Source: Archangium sp.
Lineage (GTDB): Bacteria > Myxococcota > Myxococcia > Myxococcales > Myxococcaceae
Direction of reading: 5' to 3'
NCBI GenBank assembly: GCA_031367385.1
Contig: JANLPS010000185.1
Coordinates: 1 to 20,920 of the forward strand
DNA length: 20,920 nt
Under the pieces are notes generated by a model that saw nothing but the letters and a program-made list of their open reading frames with translations, ran no database searches and was not told the DNA's origin. Below are positions 1-14,329 of this stretch, piece after piece. Position numbers and translations under genes: made by a program. The first letter of the stretch is position 1, and each line of letters opens with the position of its first letter.

Positions 1-300
1 CAGTGCGACCCGAGCGCGGCGACGTCGACCTGCCCAGCCGGCAGCGAGTGCCAGGCCTCGTCGGGGTCGAATTACTGTTTGCCTCCCAAGGCGACGGGGG
101 GTGGCACCGGAGGCGGCGGAGGCACCGTCGGCGGCGGTCAAGGTGGCGGCGGGTTTACGGGCATCAAAGACGCGGGTACTGGCGGTGGTACGGTGACGAA
201 CCCGACCCTGTGTGGTTGCACCTCGTTCACGCAGGTGCCGCTGCTGGGTGGGTTGTTCTTGCTGGCGTTCTTGCGACGTCGCGCCTACCGGCGCACTTGA
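1..300 (+). CDS. C-terminal part (5'-truncated by window) of a Cys-rich exported protein with Gly/Thr-rich linker and MYXO-CTERM-like sorting tail
   Basis: Frame 1 is open from base 1: QCDPSAATSTCPAGSECQASSGSNYCLPPKATGGGTGGGGG...NPTLCGCTSFTQVPLLGGLFLLAFLRRRAYRRT*. The CGC motif, hydrophobic segment and RRR match the MYXO-CTERM architecture. Confidence 0.75.
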   Translation, partial: QCDPSAATSTCPAGSECQASSGSNYCLPPKATGGGTGGGGGTVGGGQGGGGFTGIKDAGTGGGTVTNPTLCGCTSFTQVPLLGGLFLLAFLRRRAYRRT

Positions 301-1799
301 ACGACCAGCGACCGCCCGAACACCTCGCGAAACAGCTGCTCTTCGTGCGCCACGTCCCACAGCTCGAGGTCGACGGTGGTCTTGGCCTTGATGATGAGCA
401 CCGCCGTTCGCCCCCGCACCGACGCTTTGACCCACTTCACCGGCTGGTGGTGGCTGCGGTCGAGAGAGTCGGCCACGCGCAGCAGGGTCGCGCACTTTCG
501 AACCACCCGAATCTCGGTGAGCGTCAAGCCGGCCATCGCCTCATGCGTCGCCTCGGGGCTGCTGCGCCGGTGAAACCGGGCGATGGCCGCGACGATCGAC
601 CGCTCCCGCTCTGAAAACCCAGGCAGATCAACGTTCTGAATCAGGTAGTGCGTGTGCTTGTGGTGCCGCTGGTAGTTCACCGCGTGCCCGATGTCGTGCA
701 GCAGCGCAGCCGCCTCGAGTGCTGGGCGGGCCGCCGCCGGCAACTGGTGCATGGTCGCCAGGCCATCGAACAGCGACAGCGCGAGCGACGAGACCTGCCG
801 TGAGTGGGCCTCGCTGAACCCGAACCGCCGGCCAATCGACACCACCGCCTCGGTCAACGAGTGATCGTGCCCGTCGACGCCCCTGCGCCGAACCAGCTCG
901 AACAAGATGCCCTCTCGAAGCCCGCGATCGACCGCGGTGATCGTCTGCACCTTCAAATGCTTGAGCACCGCCTCGAGAATCACCGCTCCAGCGACCACGA
1001 TGTCGGCGCGTCGGGGGTCGAAGCGCTTGCGTCGCTGCTCAGAGGTCATCGCCGCGAGCTCGTTGACGGCTCGAGAGATCTCTTCAGTGGTCGCGTGCCC
1101 CATGCCCTCAGATCGCGCATACGCGACGATCGCCTGAATGGTGCCGCTGCTGCCGACCGCGGCCTTGGGCAAGCCGCTCAGCCCGCTCGCCATCGCCTCG
1201 CTCATCGCGTCGCGGGCGAAGTCGCGCAGCATCGCCAAGCGCTTCTTCGAGACCGATTCTTTGACGTCGAACAGCTCGCTGAGCCGCACCGCGCCGATGT
1301 CGACGCTCCAGAGGTCTTTTGGGGTCTCGCCGAGCGCGACGATGATCTCAGTGCTGCCGCCGCCGATGTCGATGCAGAGCGCCCGTTGCGTCGGGGGCTT
1401 GCCGTGCAGCACGCCCATGCAGATCAGCCGGGCTTCTTCGCGCCCCGAGACCACATCGAGCGCCAACCCCGCCTCGCGGCGCACCCGTTTGACCACATCG
1501 TCACGGTTTTTCGCCTCTCGTAACGCACTCGTTGCAACGGCCCGAACGCGGGCGCCGTAGCGTTTGCAGAGCGCAGCGTACCGGCGCAGCGTCGCCACGA
1601 GCCGATCGACCACCACCTTCTGCAAGATGCCGGTGGTGAACAGCCCTTCGCCGGGCCGAACCGGGTCGCGCTCGGTATGCAGCGTCTCGAGCGAGCCATC
1701 AGGAAAAACGCGGGCCAGCTCGAGCCGCACCGCATTGGTGCCGACATCGATGGCGGCCAAAATGTCATCTATTTTCTCAGGTCGACTGCGACGCGGCAT
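285..1799 (-). CDS. ppx: Ppx/GppA family exopolyphosphatase with C-terminal HD domain
   Basis: AAIDVGTNAVRL, ATSALREA, SGREEARL, DIGGGSTE, GLREG and LLHDIG motifs; divergent from ppk1. Confidence 0.93.
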   Translation of the reverse strand: MPRRSRPEKIDDILAAIDVGTNAVRLELARVFPDGSLETLHTERDPVRPGEGLFTTGILQKVVVDRLVATLRRYAALCKRYGARVRAVATSALREAKNRDDVVKRVRREAGLALDVVSGREEARLICMGVLHGKPPTQRALCIDIGGGSTEIIVALGETPKDLWSVDIGAVRLSELFDVKESVSKKRLAMLRDFARDAMSEAMASGLSGLPKAAVGSSGTIQAIVAYARSEGMGHATTEEISRAVNELAAMTSEQRRKRFDPRRADIVVAGAVILEAVLKHLKVQTITAVDRGLREGILFELVRRRGVDGHDHSLTEAVVSIGRRFGFSEAHSRQVSSLALSLFDGLATMHQLPAAARPALEAAALLHDIGHAVNYQRHHKHTHYLIQNVDLPGFSERERSIVAAIARFHRRSSPEATHEAMAGLTLTEIRVVRKCATLLRVADSLDRSHHQPVKWVKASVRGRTAVLIIKAKTTVDLELWDVAHEEQLFREVFGRSLVVQVRR

Positions 1800-1868
1800 G
1801 ATGAGGTAGCGGGCGACGTTAGCCGCTGTAGGGCTGCCTCAGCAGTGCTTTCGTTCAACGGAGTTCAC

Positions 1869-4025
1869 GTGGTCGAGCAAACCAGCGACAAACACCTCTT
1901 CATCAACCGCGAGCTGTCGTGGCTGGCGTTCAACGAGCGGGTGCTCGCTGAAGCGAGAAATGCCAGCATCCCCATTCACGAGCGCATCAAGTTTCTCGCG
2001 ATTTCGATGAGCAACCTCGATGAGTTCTTCATGGTGCGCGTGGCCGGTCTTCGTCAACAAGCCCTGGGCGGAGTGGCCGAGCTGCCCGCAGACGGCATGT
2101 TGCCTTCGGAGCAGCTGACCGCGATCGCCGACCGCACCCATCTGATGTCGACCGAGGCGTACCGGGTCTGGGGGCGCGAGCTGATGCCCCTGCTCGCCGC
2201 GAACGGGCTGCACCTGCTCGACCGCACCCAGCTGACCGCCGAGCAAAAAGCGGCCGCGAAGACTTTCTTTCAATCATCGGTCTTCCCCGCGCTCACGCCG
2301 CTGGCAGTCGACCCGGGTCACCCTTTCCCCCACCTGAGAAACAAGTCGATCAACCTGGCGATCGTGGTTCGTCGCAACGAGAAGCGCCGCAAGAAAGAAA
2401 TGGTCGAGAGCGCCCTGGCCGTGGTTCAGGTGCCGGCGGTGCTGCCGCGCCTGGTGGCGGTACCCTCAGCGACAGGCACGGCGTTTTTGCTGCTCGACGA
2501 TCTCATCGCCAACCACGTCGGAGACCTCTTCCCCGGGTTTTTGGTCGAACAGGTTGCCACCTTTCGTGTGACCCGAAACTGGGACCTCGACGTCGACGAA
2601 GAAGAGTCACAAGACCTCCTGGCGTCGATTCAGCAAGAGCTCCGACGCCGAGACCGTGGCGCGGCAGTGCGGCTCGAGATGGAGGCCTCCGCGTCTCCGG
2701 CGCTCGAAGCGCAGCTGACCGGCGCGCTCAAGCTCACACCGCCCGACGTGTATCGCGTGCAGGGCCCACTCAACCTGCCAGACCTGACCTCGATCGCCGA
2801 TGCTGACCAGCGCCCTGAGAACCGGGTGGAGGCCTTCGTGCCCGCCACGCCGCTGGTGCTCAAAGACGCCGATTCGATGCTGGCGTCGATCGCCAGCCGC
2901 GACATTCTGTTGCACCACCCGTACGAGTCGTTCGACCCGGTGATTCGCTTCTTGGAAGAAGCCGCCGACGACCCGAATGTCTTGGCGATCAAGCAGACGC
3001 TGTATCGAACCACCGGCGATAGCCCGATTGGCCGCTCGCTGATGCGCGCGTCAGAGAACGGCAAGCAGGTCACGGTGCTGGTCGAGCTCAAGGCCCGCCT
3101 CGACGAGGCCAACAACATCGCCTGGGCGCGCCGCATGGAGGACAACGGCGTTCACGTGGTCTACGGCATTCTCGGCCTCAAGACGCACTGCAAGGTGACG
3201 CTGGTCGTGCGCCGCGAGGGCAACGGCATTCGCCGCTACGTGCATCTCGGCACGGGCAACTACAACACCCTCACCGCCCGGCAGTACACCGACCTCTCGT
3301 ACTTCACCGCGCGCCCTGAGATCGCCGACGACGTCACCGCGCTCTTCAACATGCTGACCGGCTACTCGACCCAACCCAACTGGAAGCGGCTGGCGGTGGC
3401 TCCGACCACGTTGCAGACCAGGGTGCTCGAGCTCATCGAGCGCGAATCAGCCAAGGCCAAGAAGGGCGAGCCTTCGCGCATCATTGCGAAGCTCAACGCG
3501 TTGGTCGATGCGCCGACCATACGGGCGCTGTACGCGGCGAGCCAGGCAGGCGTCGAGGTCGACCTGTTGGTGCGCGGCATCTGCTGCCTGCGCCCCGGCG
3601 TAGCGGGCGTCTCGGAGCGCATTCGCGTCTTCAGCGTGGTCGATCGGTTTCTCGAGCACTCACGGGTCTTCGCCTTCGGCACCGGCCCGCAGACCGAGGT
3701 CTACATCTCGTCAGCCGACTGGATGCCTCGCAACTTTCACCGACGCATCGAGGTGTTGGCGCCGATTGAAGACCCGGGCCTTCGTCAGCGCCTGCTCGAT
3801 GAGCCGCTGGGCATCGGGCTCAAAGACAACGTGAAGGCACGACAGCTGATGGCCGATGGCTCGTACGTGATGGTCACCGCGGCCCCCGACGCCGCGGCCA
3901 TTCGCAGCCAGACCACTCTGCTCGAGCTGGCCAAGAAGACGATCACGCCCCCCGCGGAGCCAGTGATTCGCCACGTCGCGTCACCCCTCGAGAAGGCGCC
4001 TCCGGGCCCCAGCAGCGCAGCGTAA
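1869..4025 (+). CDS. ppk1: Polyphosphate kinase 1
   Basis: FINRELSWLAFNERVL, SNLDEFFMVRVAGL, DPGHPFP, LLHHPYESF, LKTHCK, HLGTGNYN, DRFLEHSR and SADWMPRN motifs. Start placed at GTG 1869 behind ACGGAG; the longer ORF from 1677 overlaps ppx. Confidence 0.96.
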   Translation: MVEQTSDKHLFINRELSWLAFNERVLAEARNASIPIHERIKFLAISMSNLDEFFMVRVAGLRQQALGGVAELPADGMLPSEQLTAIADRTHLMSTEAYRVWGRELMPLLAANGLHLLDRTQLTAEQKAAAKTFFQSSVFPALTPLAVDPGHPFPHLRNKSINLAIVVRRNEKRRKKEMVESALAVVQVPAVLPRLVAVPSATGTAFLLLDDLIANHVGDLFPGFLVEQVATFRVTRNWDLDVDEEESQDLLASIQQELRRRDRGAAVRLEMEASASPALEAQLTGALKLTPPDVYRVQGPLNLPDLTSIADADQRPENRVEAFVPATPLVLKDADSMLASIASRDILLHHPYESFDPVIRFLEEAADDPNVLAIKQTLYRTTGDSPIGRSLMRASENGKQVTVLVELKARLDEANNIAWARRMEDNGVHVVYGILGLKTHCKVTLVVRREGNGIRRYVHLGTGNYNTLTARQYTDLSYFTARPEIADDVTALFNMLTGYSTQPNWKRLAVAPTTLQTRVLELIERESAKAKKGEPSRIIAKLNALVDAPTIRALYAASQAGVEVDLLVRGICCLRPGVAGVSERIRVFSVVDRFLEHSRVFAFGTGPQTEVYISSADWMPRNFHRRIEVLAPIEDPGLRQRLLDEPLGIGLKDNVKARQLMADGSYVMVTAAPDAAAIRSQTTLLELAKKTITPPAEPVIRHVASPLEKAPPGPSSAA

Positions 4026-7187: not shown

Positions 7188-8567
7188 TTACTTCGAGCCC
7201 TTGGGGAACATTTTGCCCGGGTTTAGGAGCGCTTGTGGGTCGAAGAAGGCCTTCAACTTCTCTTGGAGCGCGATCAACTCCGGGCTCTGTTCGAGCGAGA
7301 CGAACCTCGCCTTGGCGACCCCGATTCCATGCTCGCCGGAAATGGTGCCGCCCAACTCGACCGTGATGCGCATGATGTCGGCCAGAGCCAGCTCGACGGT
7401 GGGGCGTTCATGCGGGCCCGCGTACAAGACGTTGGTGTGCAGGTTGCCATCGCCGGCGTGCCCATAGGTCGCGACGGTGAGCCCGTGTTTCACGCCGATG
7501 GCCTTGAATCGCCGTATCGCCTCGGGAATCTGGCTGCGCGGCACCACGATGTCTTCGGAGAACTTGAACTTCTTCACCGCGCGCAGCGACGGCGAGACCA
7601 AACGCCTGACCGCCCAGAGCTTCTCGCGCTGGGAGTCGTCTTGAGCGATCAGGGCGTCGAGCGCGCCGCTGTGGGTGCACAGCTCACAGAGCCGGGTCAG
7701 CTCGGCCAGCACGCCCTCGCTCGAAAAACCGTCGATTTCGGCGATGAGGCAGGCGCCACAGCCTTCGGGAAAATTGAAGCCCTTGCCGTCAATGGCGGCG
7801 ATCGACACGTCGTCGAGCAGCTCGAGGCACCTCGGCAACACGCCGTGCGTGAGCACCTGGCCGACGGCCTTGGCCGCGTCATCGACCGAACGAAACGGCA
7901 GCAACGCGGTCATCACGACCTGCGGTTTCGGCAGCAATTTCAAGGTGATCTCGGTCGCTATGCCGAGGGTGCCTTCACTGCCGACGAACAGCCCGACCAG
8001 GTCGTACCCGACCACGCCTTTGCTGGTGCGTTTACCGACGCGAACCACCTCGCCCGAGGGCAGCACCCACTCGAGGCCGAGCACGTAGTCGCGGGTGACG
8101 CCGTACTTGAGGGCCCGGGGGCCTCCGGCGTTTTCGGCGATATTGCCGCCCAGGGTGCAGGTCTCCCAGGAGTTCGGGTCGGGCGGGTAGAACAGCCCCT
8201 GGGCTTCGACCGCCTTCATCAGGTCGCCGAGGACCACTCCGGGCTGCACGACCACCGTGAGATCGTCGGGCCGCAGCTCGATGATTCGATTCATCTTTTC
8301 GAGGCTGAGGCAGACGCCGCCGTTCACGGGCAGCGAGCCACCACTCTTGCCGGTGCGCGCGCCGACCGGGGTCACCGGCACCTGGTGCTCTGCACACAGC
8401 TTCAGCACCGCCTGCACCTGCTGCGTCGAGGTCGCGAAGACGACGAGCTCGGGGGCGAAGTCACCCTGATCAGACTCGTCATGGCCGAACCTCGCCACGG
8501 TCTCGGCGTCAGCGCGGCACTCGAGCCCCGCGGCCCGCAGCGCGGCGATTACCGAATTCGTGCCCAC
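7188..8567 (-). CDS. FAD-linked oxidoreductase, GlcD / D-2-hydroxyacid dehydrogenase family
   Basis: YPPDPNS, TLGGNIAENAGG, KYGVTRDYVLGL, GSEGTLG, GHAGDGNLH, GEHGIG and DP-x2-LLNPGK motifs. Start overlaps the folE end by 19 nt. Confidence 0.9.
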   Translation of the reverse strand: MGTNSVIAALRAAGLECRADAETVARFGHDESDQGDFAPELVVFATSTQQVQAVLKLCAEHQVPVTPVGARTGKSGGSLPVNGGVCLSLEKMNRIIELRPDDLTVVVQPGVVLGDLMKAVEAQGLFYPPDPNSWETCTLGGNIAENAGGPRALKYGVTRDYVLGLEWVLPSGEVVRVGKRTSKGVVGYDLVGLFVGSEGTLGIATEITLKLLPKPQVVMTALLPFRSVDDAAKAVGQVLTHGVLPRCLELLDDVSIAAIDGKGFNFPEGCGACLIAEIDGFSSEGVLAELTRLCELCTHSGALDALIAQDDSQREKLWAVRRLVSPSLRAVKKFKFSEDIVVPRSQIPEAIRRFKAIGVKHGLTVATYGHAGDGNLHTNVLYAGPHERPTVELALADIMRITVELGGTISGEHGIGVAKARFVSLEQSPELIALQEKLKAFFDPQALLNPGKMFPKGSK

Positions 8568-9130
8568 AGCTCAGCTCGCAGCCCGGCGTCTTTGAGCACG
8601 CCTTCGTACGCCTCGGTGTGGGTAACGGCCTGGTGCTGCTCGCCTCCGCGCAAGCGCAGACAGGTCTGCTCGGCCTCGATCACGCAGGCCGCGCCCTGGC
8701 TCTTGAGGTGCGTTGACAGTGCCGTCGCGACGTTGCGGGCGAGCTCTTCTTGCAGCACCAGCCGATGCGCGAACGCGTCGAGCAAGGCGCCGATGCGGCC
8801 GAAGCCGACCACGCTCTTGCCCGGCACGTACGCGATGTGCGCCTTGCCCGAGTACGGCATCAGGTGGTGGGGGCACATCGATCGAAAATGCAGGTTGGTG
8901 ATGACGACCAGCTCGCGGTCACTGCGCTTGCTGACGGGGAACTGTTCGCCGAGCACCTCGGCGGGGTCGAGGCCGTAGCCATTGAGAAACTCGTCGGCGA
9001 AAGCTTCGGCGACCCGGCGCGGCGTGTCTTGGAGGTTCTCGTCATTCGCGTCGAGCCCAGCCGAAGCCAAGAAGCGGCCAATGTGCTTGGCCATCATCTT
9101 CACCCGGGGCTTGGCAGGCGCGCGCTTCAT
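8549..9130 (-). CDS. folE: GTP cyclohydrolase I (FolE family), divergent active-site motifs
   Basis: DTPRRVA, SMCPHHLMP, HIAYVP, LQEEL and EAEQTCLRLRG. ATG 9130 overlaps the queD stop (ATGA). Confidence 0.85.
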   Translation of the reverse strand: MKRAPAKPRVKMMAKHIGRFLASAGLDANDENLQDTPRRVAEAFADEFLNGYGLDPAEVLGEQFPVSKRSDRELVVITNLHFRSMCPHHLMPYSGKAHIAYVPGKSVVGFGRIGALLDAFAHRLVLQEELARNVATALSTHLKSQGAACVIEAEQTCLRLRGGEQHQAVTHTEAYEGVLKDAGLRAELWARIR

Positions 9131-9477
9131 ACGCGATAGGTGACGCAGTACTCCGGCGTCTCCCACAGCTTGATCTCTTTGAGCCCCTCGATGATCGGCG
9201 CGAGGCGCTCCCACATCCACACCACGAGGTTCTCGGCGGTCGGGTTCTCGACGATGTCGTTGAGGTGGTAATGGTCGACCTTCGAGAGCACCTGTTCGCT
9301 GACGGTGCGCTTGATCTCATCGAAGTCGCGAATCATGCCGTCTTTGGGCGAGGGCCTCCCGGCGAGCGTGACCTGCAGCACGTAGTTGTGACCATGCAGC
9401 CGCTTGCACGGCCCGTCGTAAAACGGCAGCAAGTGCGACGCGCTGAAATGAAAATCAATGGACAGCAGCATTTCCAT
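9127..9477 (-). CDS. queD: 6-carboxy-5,6,7,8-tetrahydropterin synthase (QueD / PTPS-I type)
   Basis: FSASH, C-x3-HGHNY (CKRLHGHNY), DHYHLND, NPTAEN and LWETP motifs. Confidence 0.9.
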   Translation of the reverse strand: MEMLLSIDFHFSASHLLPFYDGPCKRLHGHNYVLQVTLAGRPSPKDGMIRDFDEIKRTVSEQVLSKVDHYHLNDIVENPTAENLVVWMWERLAPIIEGLKEIKLWETPEYCVTYRV

Positions 9478-9497: not shown

Positions 9498-10244
9498 TTA
9501 GAAAAAGCGAATGGGTTCGGGCCGCTGCAGTTTCTCGACCGGTACATCGACCTCGACCTCATCGGTGGGGATGAAGGCCGGCCGGTCGATGCAGAGAAAG
9601 CTCTGCTCGATGTCGGTCACGTTTTCATAGCGGTGGGCGAAGCCTTTGGGCCACGAATGGGCCAGCCCCGCGGCGACCGGGTGGCCCTGCAGGAGCAGCC
9701 CGTCTCCTAAGACCAGCTCTGACTCGTCGAGATATTGGTGGGAGTGGGTGGGGAGCACGGTCTTGGGGCTGATGCGCTCGCGGTACACGCCGCATTCTTT
9801 GGTCTCGAAGATGATGTCGACCGCGCCGAAGCCCTTGCGCTCGGTGAGCATCTTGAAGTCACCCTGTTCGCGGTGAATCTCGAGGGTGGGCACCGCGGCG
9901 CCCGACAGGGCGACCAGCTTCGAGAGCCGAACGTCGACCTGGGCGATCAGCGGCCGGGGCACGTCGTGGCTGGGAGGTGCCAGAATCCACCCTGCGACCG
10001 CTTCGGCAGCGCTCTCGAGGAGCCGAAAACGCGACGCCGTGAGAATGAACCGCAGCTCACCCAACAGGCGCGAATAGTCGACGGTGTGAATCAATTTGCC
10101 CAGGCGCGCGGCTTCACGGGTGTCGAAGTGGAGCGTGACGTCGAGCTCGACGGGCTGCGGCGTGTTTCGCTCGAAGTCGAAGAGGCCCACGATGCAGTCG
10201 AAGCGCATGCCGCGCAGAGAGAGTCGGTCGAGTTGGTTGGTCAT
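9498..10244 (-). CDS. folB: Dihydroneopterin aldolase (FolB) fused to a C-terminal cupin-like domain
   Basis: N-terminal ~125 aa: VGLFDFER..PQ, TVDY, LLESAAE and catalytic-type K in VRLSK. C-terminal PTHSHQYLDESELVLG and WPKGFAHRYEN resemble the two cupin motifs. Confidence 0.82.
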   Translation of the reverse strand: MTNQLDRLSLRGMRFDCIVGLFDFERNTPQPVELDVTLHFDTREAARLGKLIHTVDYSRLLGELRFILTASRFRLLESAAEAVAGWILAPPSHDVPRPLIAQVDVRLSKLVALSGAAVPTLEIHREQGDFKMLTERKGFGAVDIIFETKECGVYRERISPKTVLPTHSHQYLDESELVLGDGLLLQGHPVAAGLAHSWPKGFAHRYENVTDIEQSFLCIDRPAFIPTDEVEVDVPVEKLQRPEPIRFF

Positions 10245-10957
10245 GCGACGCTGAGGCCTCCGTCGACGCGCAGGGTTTGGCCGGTGATGTAGCCGTGGGT
10301 CGCCAAAAAAACGACCGCTCGTGCGACATCGTCGGGGCGGCCTTCTCGGCCGAGGGGCACGCGCTTCAGAATTTCGGCGCGTTGGGTGTCGGTGGTCTGC
10401 GCGGCCATCGCCACCGGCCCTGGAGCGACTGCGTTGACCCGAATCGACGGGCCCAGCTCGAGGGCCCAGGCGCGGGTGAGCTGATCGAGCGCGGCCTTGC
10501 TGGCGAGGTAATGGGCGAAGAAGTGACTCGAGGTGTAGGCGTGTGTGACGGCCATGTCGGTGATGTTGACGATCGCTCCCTGCTTCGAGGCCTTGAGCTT
10601 GGGCACGAGCGCCTGCGCCAAGAAGAACGGAGCCGCCACGTTCACCGCCACCATTGCGTCGAACTGCGCGCGTGAAATGTCAGTGAAATCAACGTGCTCG
10701 TAAGCGGCCGCGCTGTTGACGAGCAGGTCGAGGGCGGCGACGCGGCTGGCCAGCTTCGCCGGGCCATCGGGCTTCGAGAGATCTTCGCGCTCGACCCGTG
10801 CGGTGCGGCCGAGGGCCTTGAGCTCGGCGGCGAGGGCTTGGGCCTGATCACCTGAGGTGTGGGCGTGAATCACGACCTCGAACCCGGCCTCCGCGAGCGC
10901 GATGGTGATGGCGCGGCCGACTCGAACGGCGCCTCCGGTGATGAGTGCGACGGGCAT
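10241..10957 (-). CDS. Pteridine reductase-like short-chain dehydrogenase (FolM/PTR1 family)
   Basis: TGGAVRVG (Arg-containing Rossmann motif typical of PTR1/FolM), LVNSA, VNITD, YLASK (YxxxK), IRVNAVAPG and ITGQTLRVDGG. ATGA overlap with folB. Confidence 0.85.
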   Translation of the reverse strand: MPVALITGGAVRVGRAITIALAEAGFEVVIHAHTSGDQAQALAAELKALGRTARVEREDLSKPDGPAKLASRVAALDLLVNSAAAYEHVDFTDISRAQFDAMVAVNVAAPFFLAQALVPKLKASKQGAIVNITDMAVTHAYTSSHFFAHYLASKAALDQLTRAWALELGPSIRVNAVAPGPVAMAAQTTDTQRAEILKRVPLGREGRPDDVARAVVFLATHGYITGQTLRVDGGLSVA

Positions 10958-11044: not shown

Positions 11045-11605
11045 ATGTCACTCTCGGTCGAGATCACCAGCCCCACAATCGACGTCGCGGCGCTCGAGGC
11101 AGGCCACCAGGCCCCCGACGTGCTGTTTCGCGGCGCGATCGTGAGTCAGGGCTTTCGCAAGCTGCACGTCGCGAAGGCGATGCTGGCGTTCGCGGTCGAC
11201 GAGAGCTGGGCGGGGCGCAGCGGCGAGGCGGTGCTGCGAGACCAGGGCTCGGTGCAAGACCGGGCGGTGTTCAACGGGGCTCTGCAGTATGACTGCCTGT
11301 TGATTCGCGGCGAGGGCAGTGCGCTGACCGCGGTCTACGCCGAGGGCATCGGCGCCGAGCTGAAGGTCGGCTCGCTGTTCACCGGCACTGGCAAGGGGCC
11401 GAGCGGCACGTTGGTGATGATCTACCGGGCTCGGAGGAGGGATTCGGCCGCGGCGATGTTGCTGGCGAGCCGGTGTGCGCCGGGCTCGCTCGTCTTCGGT
11501 GGCGGCGGGGCCAAGCGAAGTGAGGAGGCTTGGGCTGCGCGGGCGCGGGCGATGAGACCCTTCGCGTTCTTGCGCTCGGCCCTGCACTCACTGCCCGGGC
11601 AGTGA
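11045..11605 (+). CDS. Hypothetical protein (186 aa)
   Basis: GAGGAG RBS at 11031-11036 before the ATG; fills the gap between the pterin operon and rarA; no family recognised. Confidence 0.7.
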   Translation: MSLSVEITSPTIDVAALEAGHQAPDVLFRGAIVSQGFRKLHVAKAMLAFAVDESWAGRSGEAVLRDQGSVQDRAVFNGALQYDCLLIRGEGSALTAVYAEGIGAELKVGSLFTGTGKGPSGTLVMIYRARRRDSAAAMLLASRCAPGSLVFGGGGAKRSEEAWAARARAMRPFAFLRSALHSLPGQ

Positions 11606-13906: not shown

Positions 13907-14329
13907 TCAGGCGGGCTCCCAGCCGCCGCCCTGGGCGCGCTGGCGACAGCCTGGTTTGAGCTCGCTTCGCGCGTCGTCGGTGAGCAGCTCGCACGGGTTG
14001 AACCAGTGTTCTTTGCGCCATGACATCGTCATCGCGGGGAGCTCACCCGAGAAGTCTGCGTTGTCGGGGCAGCGCCATTTCCAGAGTGCCCAGCGCTCGG
14101 GGGCCGCGTCGAACCAGAGCACTTCTTTGATGCCCGCGTTGCAGTTGGTGGCGATGACCACGACGGGGCCGGGCAGGCCTTCGGGTTGACGCACGCGGAG
14201 GACGAGGTCGTGGTGGAATTCGCCCTGCTGCCAGTGCTCGAGCACGTCGTACGGGCCGAAGGTGCTCGACAGGGTGTCGAGAAACGGGCCGAGGCCGGAG
14301 GGTTCTTGCAAGGCCGAGAGCGTCTGCAT
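13907..14329 (-). CDS. Hypothetical protein (140 aa, His/Cys/Trp-rich motifs)
   Basis: Protein-like composition and GC-rich third positions; convergent with the GNAT gene; no family recognised. Confidence 0.7.
   Translation of the reverse strand: MQTLSALQEPSGLGPFLDTLSSTFGPYDVLEHWQQGEFHHDLVLRVRQPEGLPGPVVVIATNCNAGIKEVLWFDAAPERWALWKWRCPDNADFSGELPAMTMSWRKEHWFNPCELLTDDARSELKPGCRQRAQGGGWEPA

Follow-up and report, generated by a model that had tools for sequence, protein, structure and literature searches.

The fusion gene and its operon

We begin by considering a 20,920-nucleotide stretch of Archangium sp. DNA (contig JANLPS010000185.1; the whole stretch is called the window here), in which the gene at 9498..10244 on the (-) strand encodes a 248-residue protein that joins a dihydroneopterin aldolase (FolB) to a cupin. 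An earlier note, made from the sequence alone, had read the gene as such a fusion, and the fusion is real: a single open reading frame (ORF) carries a FolB domain of 71 bits at its N-terminus and a cupin, by model, at its C-terminus, with homologues and an AlphaFold2 structure in support. The FolB half occupies 9867..10232 (-) (residues 5-126) and the cupin half 9501..9857 (-) (residues 130-248), the latter with predicted metal ligands H167 (codon at 9744-9746), H169, E174 and H204 (9633-9635). The fusion is conserved and, as the note had supposed, appears undescribed: full-text searches of the open literature, with subscription papers (including the primary work on type III 6-pyruvoyl-tetrahydropterin synthase, PTPS-III) and supplements outside their scope, found neither the fusion nor any cupin of pterin metabolism described.

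The gene is the second in a coupled run. It is preceded by a pteridine reductase/FolM-like short-chain dehydrogenase/reductase (SDR1, 10241..10957 (-)), whose stop overlaps the fusion start in an ATGA, and a GGAGG stands upstream of that start. Next come queD (9127..9477 (-)), a PTPS-I with the CxxxHGH motif, folE for GTP cyclohydrolase I (8549..9130 (-), whose start, probably at 9130, overlaps the stop of queD), and a GlcD-like FAD-linked oxidase (7188..8567 (-)), the final gene of the run. SDR1 matches PRK09135 with 219 bits, short of the cut-off of 288, and this is still its best NCBIfam model; its best PDB match is FolM (5tgd), near-tied with other SDRs. In the close loci SDR1 adjoins the fusion upstream in 42 of 51 and queD follows it in 38 of 51, while the GlcD-like gene stands beside it in the window's clade only.

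The Pfam FolB model (PF02152) spans residues 9-116, its 71 bits standing well above the cut-off of 31.8. The equivalog model TIGR00525 gives 51.3 bits against a cut-off of 72.15, and the domain model TIGR00526 is passed. The catalytic residues of FolB are Glu21, Tyr53, Glu73 and Lys98 in E. coli numbering, as PMC4176595 describes them. In the fusion E25, Y57 and E77 align with those of 1dhn, and K109 is assigned by its position and its conservation in 120 of 121 homologues, so that the Glu/Tyr/Glu/Lys set is complete and aldolase activity is predicted. A fold search recovers the tunnel fold for this half, with a TM score to the FolB targets (S. aureus 1dhn, E. coli 2o90) of 0.86-0.92; the fusion differs from these in its C-terminal cupin.

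The window genome, 98% complete, carries folK, folP, folA, a PhhA-like hydroxylase gene and phhB. Within it the fusion alone matches the FolB family, and no PTPS-family gene besides queD was found. A canonical tetrahydrobiopterin pathway is not recovered in this genome, where QueD stands alone and the sepiapterin-reductase model TIGR01500 reaches at best 66 bits against 206. In the FolX/FolM route to tetrahydromonapterin a FolB-like gene is likewise linked with folE and a pteridine reductase, and no cupin is known there; the N-terminal half of the fusion is, moreover, nearer to FolB than to FolX (19.8 bits for PRK11245; E 0.13 for 1b9l versus 8e-8 for 1dhn). We also note an aromatic amino-acid hydroxylase of 510 aa (G000 C121 4276-5805), whose Biopterin_H match is split; it is of the long type common in the family.

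The cupin fold and its site

We turn our attention to the C-terminal half. Its two motifs, PTHSHQYLDE from residue 165 and WPKGFAHRYEN from residue 198, had been taken for a complete 3-His/1-Glu cupin site, and none of 100,000 shuffles of this half reproduces the two-motif pattern. Profile searches see the domain faintly: the window protein itself misses the Pfam Cupin_2/MannoseP_isomer cut-off (13.7 versus 27.2 bits) and its C-half alone matches Cupin_2 with E 0.052, again under the cut-off, while 34 of 36 homologous C-halves match at E<=1 (best 5e-8). AlphaFold2 gives a pLDDT of 93 and a pTM of 0.91 for the whole fusion, and 94 and 0.86 for the C-half alone. The Foldseek and VIA-align matches of the latter are cupins, the best with Z 14.2 and rmsd 1.7 over 102 residues. 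As modelled, residues 130-248 are a cupin barrel with the complete motif, and the Pfam, AlphaFold and Foldseek checks that the earlier note had proposed bear out its reading.

The four ligands are conserved in close homologues (H167 and E174 in 120 of 121, H169 and H204 in 121 of 121) and are surrounded by conserved pocket residues E176, C218, D220, F224, D228 and E229; Glu156 marks the window's clade and is Leu in others. By prediction the cupin likely binds a metal at the His/His/Glu/His site.

The top fold match is an archaeal phosphomannose isomerase, followed by CENP-C, CapF and DddK; no single function stands out in the searches of this half, the scores being tied across many functions, and a search of the ESM Atlas returns generic phosphomannose isomerase-like cupins only. 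The small metal cupins (type II phosphomannose isomerase 7zvy, CapF, DddK, Pac13, AzaA) share the fold (Z 12-14) and the HxH-E-H motif, but at 13-24% identity and without a C-x-D-x-P-x-F-x3-DE motif that is peculiar to the fusion's cupin family. For none of them is an action on pterins known.

Spread of the family

A near-length search finds 311 homologues, whose titled records are Myxococcota, and the cupin half is matched in 162 of 401 sampled Myxococcota genomes (one genome, G193, is counted in the 401-genome tallies only). A profile search extends the family to 338 clusters at 50% identity, with named members in the Oligoflexales and in the protist Plasmodiophora brassicae. A free-standing cupin, sought by near-length search, yields 10 matches that are all fragments or eroded fusions, and the plasmids, phages and viral contigs searched hold no cupin relative.

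Among the 150 best representatives, a set that the search biases towards intact cupins and that includes some fragmentary rows, H167, H169, E174, E176 and H204 are complete in 145, in line with the conservation that the earlier note had expected; C218 is present in 144 of 149 and D228 in 145 of 148. The four FolB catalytic residues are complete in just 37 of the 150, and many N-halves are reduced to the two FolB helices. Among 21 long members the cupin may be extended by a C-terminal Nudix domain (YtkD-like, below cut-off; 16 members) or an SDR (2 members). With an eroded FolB half so common beside a persisting cupin, and with fusions to Nudix or an SDR, an accessory role of the cupin to FolB is not supported, nor is the suggestion in the note that it might process glycolaldehyde, a FolB product. 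Triple fusions of eroded FolB, cupin and YtkD-like Nudix include P0211, P0223, P0258, P0260, P0271 and others, at least one of them from a protist.

Loss of the cupin site and gain of PTPS-family genes

Residues were scored in 144 of the 162 cupin-bearing genomes, the other 18 being mostly the weakest matches. The cupin site is fully intact in 94; the metal motif is lost in 41; 8 are intermediate, with the motif kept alongside second-shell changes or truncation, and 1 is frameshifted (L098 5049-6044, G123; the frameshift lies within the cupin and is an error or a pseudogene). The 41 genomes keep the cupin domain but have also lost D220, F224, D228 and E229, so that the second shell disappears together with the metal-site histidines.

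Most of the dead-motif genomes carry an additional PTPS-family gene. Searching 48 chosen genomes with the Pfam PTPS model finds at least two PTPS genes in 18 of 18 with a dead site versus 8 of 29 with an intact one. In most cases the additional gene encodes an ExxHGH protein of 165 aa, called P3 here, whose closest solved relative is Plasmodium PTPS (1y13); it is present in 38 of the 41 dead genomes versus 5 of the 94 intact ones, and it adjoins its own SDR (SDR3) in 10 of 10 loci read. A second SDR of the fusion loci, SDR2, lies downstream of the fusion in many of them or is fused to an intact cupin; of the genomes that carry it, 47 have an intact, 3 a dead and 2 an intermediate cupin site. 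The five intact genomes with P3 are without SDR2 by this query. Exactly one of P3 and SDR2 is found in 72 of 74 core-clade genomes. Neither SDR2 nor SDR3 matched a solved sepiapterin reductase. In two of the three dead genomes without P3 (G249 and G301) a tandem queD duplicate stands beside the fusion; the third is G314, in which no PTPS gene at all is assembled. Such duplicates beside dead-cupin fusions are seen at L120 875-1617, L112 845-1627 and L121 3080-3820, with an altered N-terminal strand and a DF-to-DL change; their motif residues are retained, and an altered activity is not supported.

Since the loss of the cupin accompanies the gain of a PTPS-family gene, the cupin step would lie upstream of, or parallel to, FolB, and the proposal of the earlier note that the cupin acts on the pterin side chain appears likely. 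The same loss speaks against the cupin as a ligand sensor, another of its suggestions. A sensor, or a domain that holds the FolB oligomer together, would be in keeping with a domain that is retained after its site has died and with a model that packs the halves tightly (pTM 0.91), but proteins without the aldolase residues still have the full cupin site, and the loss of that site follows the presence of enzyme genes; we hold this reading to be very unlikely.

A slim chance is left for an oxygenase, or for an enzyme that detoxifies glycolaldehyde or pterins that have been damaged. The GlcD-like gene in the window operon and the dioxygenases among the fold matches would suit it, as would the cupin AzaA, which oxidises a GTP-derived pyrimidine (PMC13749301); the GlcD adjacency, however, is confined to one clade, and the dead-cupin lineages retain FolB, so glycolaldehyde release continues in them. 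Somewhat better placed, though still improbable, is a side-chain isomerase or epimerase that would work on a keto-pterin with SDR2, downstream of QueD or FolB, by analogy with the CapF cupin and its SDR. Phosphomannose isomerase, CapF and KdgF are among its closest folds and the cupin and SDR2 are lost together and also found fused, but fold scores are tied over many functions and the gain of a PTPS-family gene at cupin death would go unexplained.

What happens to FolB in the genomes that gained P3? The FolB residues are intact in 36 of the 38 dead genomes with P3, and the remaining two, like two sister genomes, hold paralogs in which complementary halves of a shared FolB active site are missing. 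As FolB is kept, P3 seems not to replace it, and the aldolase seems still to be needed. One genome (G017, 89% complete), a single case, has retained the cupin and SDR2 although its FolB half is eroded and it possesses folK and a hybrid CExxHGH PTPS.

The paralog pairs with complementary active-site halves (L086 5233-6039 with L087 4897-5727 in G180; L103/L104, L105/L229, L106/L228) have one copy that keeps the Tyr loop and another that keeps the Glu/Lys side. The FolB active site is built between subunits (PMC4176595), and each such pair is likely, as judged from the residues kept, an obligate heteromeric aldolase. Two fusion copies also occur in G221 and G199 (L108/L109 and L107/L248), with FolB intact in both copies, one cupin live and one dead.

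A candidate role in pterin side-chain chemistry

Taken together, the fold model, the conserved residues, the operon and the either/or pattern with a PTPS and SDR cassette form the observed basis of our interpretation. The cupin decays in lineages that gained a known pterin-remodelling enzyme and is for this reason likely a new kind of metal enzyme; it is probably a pterin side-chain enzyme that is interchangeable with a PTPS-family protein, whichever of the PTPS-like reactions it performs. More specifically, and with a confidence just short of even, we propose that it is a non-homologous PTPS-like enzyme that would make 6-pyruvoyl-tetrahydropterin for a biopterin-type cofactor. FolE would supply dihydroneopterin triphosphate, the cupin would convert it by holding the 1',2'-diol on its metal, with E176, D220 and C218 as possible bases and elimination of the phosphate group (chemistry suggested by analogy), the dedicated SDR2 would reduce the keto side chain, the pteridine reductase would maintain the reduced ring, and the FolB half would serve folate.

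The known PTPS site, three His on a metal with a Cys and a carboxylate nearby, resembles that of the cupin. PTPS and QueD employ a catalytic Cys (PMC9894224), and C218 is near-invariant. Dihydroneopterin triphosphate is the substrate of PTPS-I, II and III (PMC5041015, PMC5445326, PMC9894224, PMC4674097), and the enzymes described as remodelling its side chain belong, in that cited literature, to the tunnel-fold PTPS family. The fusion is no member of this family (COG0720, PF01242), for PF01242 finds no match on it; the claim is that it works like a PTPS. With PTPS-II and sepiapterin reductase it would share the reaction and the pairing with an SDR, and it differs in having a cupin barrel instead of the tunnel fold and no CxxxxxHGH motif, and in that SDR2 is no recognised sepiapterin reductase. 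The window genome fits in having a PhhA-like hydroxylase and PhhB, yet only QueD as PTPS.

The main rival is that the cupin is an analogue of PTPS-III, turning dihydroneopterin tri- or monophosphate into 6-hydroxymethyl-dihydropterin for folate and skipping dephosphorylation and FolB. The ExxHGH of P3, whose nearest relative is Plasmodium PTPS, marks PTPS-III and therefore favours such a bypass; FolB erodes where the cupin persists; and the Nudix fusions (16 of the 21 long forms) would provide the monophosphate, which archaeal PTPS-III may use. Three links favour the pyruvoyl product instead. A dedicated SDR accompanies the cupin as well as P3, and such an enzyme is required for a keto side chain but not for a folate bypass; FolB, which a bypass would replace, stays intact in 36 of 38 P3 genomes; and G017 keeps its cupin and SDR2 despite an eroded FolB, a hybrid PTPS-I/III and folK. 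PTPS-III is described as a FolB bypass; the member of its group seen here turns up in genomes with a dead cupin site, where FolB is nevertheless intact, and adjoins an SDR. We judge the bypass unlikely, although not negligibly so. Plasmodium PTPS forms some pyruvoyl product, and QueD passes through a pyruvoyl intermediate.

The position of the cupin between Nudix and FolB in the fusions would also suit the missing dihydroneopterin phosphate phosphatase, feeding the fused FolB. Cupins are not known to act as phosphatases, which counts against it. The monophosphate step is ascribed to non-specific phosphatases (PMC6451014), and a PTPS-III bypass would make such a cupin dispensable; but the cupin is kept in many proteins with an eroded FolB half, the invariant columns of the family hold no conserved Arg or Lys, and the SDR swap is left unexplained, which makes a phosphatase quite improbable.

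Several points weigh against the pyruvoyl proposal itself. Once kinship is corrected for, neither correlation reaches significance: SDR2 and P3 change in opposite directions in 4-5 of 5 supported independent pairs and never in the same one (p 0.06-0.125), and for dead cupin and P3 the pairs divide into 2.6 same, 0.8 opposite and 1.6 unchanged (p about 0.6). The power of this test is low, with 8-9 changes per trait on a DNA tree of 75 rows whose branches are distorted because the upstream DNA is non-homologous in some rows; a further tree gave fewer pairs, and second paralogs were excluded from both. By these queries 42 intact genomes, the window's included, carry neither SDR2 nor P3, and for the window's clade, where the cupin is intact, no side-chain reductase is found. 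One genome (G314) has a dead cupin and SDR2 without any assembled PTPS gene, and five (G083, G114, G118, G329, G353) show second-shell changes or truncation without a replacement, G083, G114 and G329 among them outside the core clade. The cupin is also found in families mostly without PhhA (6/7 versus 1/7 in f3). P3 and SDR3 usually sit beside queD, and so they may have moved as a queuosine cassette. The ExxHGH motif of PTPS-III has been assigned to folate and not to biopterin (PMC5041015, PMC5445326, PMC9894224, PMC4674097). A fused Nudix domain would take away the triphosphate on which PTPS acts, and Nudix genes are reported beside PTPS-II too. Finally, AzaA keeps the cupin motif yet works without metal (PMC13749301), so the motif alone cannot prove a bound metal.

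A cupin acting on dihydroneopterin triphosphate would, if the proposal is true, bring a new class of enzyme into pterin metabolism; it would close a gap in the myxobacterial pathway, where a pterin-dependent hydroxylase stands without a PTPS-II, and assign a role to 338 unannotated clusters, the eukaryotic Nudix fusions among them. It is possible, and a little less credible than the pyruvoyl proposal itself, that the family in predatory bacteria and some protists forms a third biopterin-type route with an unrecognised SDR, in which the fusion to FolB splits the flux between folate and cofactor. The proposal would further imply that the folate assignment of some ExxHGH 'PTPS-III' genes is mistaken.

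Further observations

An ExxHGH PTPS with an uncharacterised SDR and intact FolB occurs at L170 3511-4742, L172 3269-4463 and L177 2485-3703, and its annotation as a folate bypass may be mistaken. Some candidate links were rejected. One is an SDR2/SDR3 orthologue in the window genome, where the best match (175 bits versus 311-385) sits in an acyl-carrier/ligase cluster; another is a YtkD-like Nudix orthologue there, for which there are generic matches of at most 40 bits only. PhhA is present in all sampled g3, g5, g10 and g15 genomes whatever the cupin state and is missing in several cupin-bearing families, and a link between cupin and PhhA was dropped. An SDR beside an eroded cupin (L155), which had seemed like a Chlorobium-type sepiapterin reductase, finds no such enzyme among its 31 PDB matches at E<=1e-12.

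At L083 3467-4213, L084 4105-4848 and L094 5871-6614 a recurring membrane protein stands beside the fusion, which we take to resemble a queuosine-precursor transporter. Elsewhere in the window, a 186-aa ORF at 11045-11605 (+) lacks a Pfam match and has a 36% paralog on contig C8, and a 140-aa ORF at 13907-14329 (-) with several Cys and Trp has no convincing Pfam match. At 285-4025 lie divergent genes that appear, as read from their sequence, to be exopolyphosphatase-like and polyphosphate-kinase-like.
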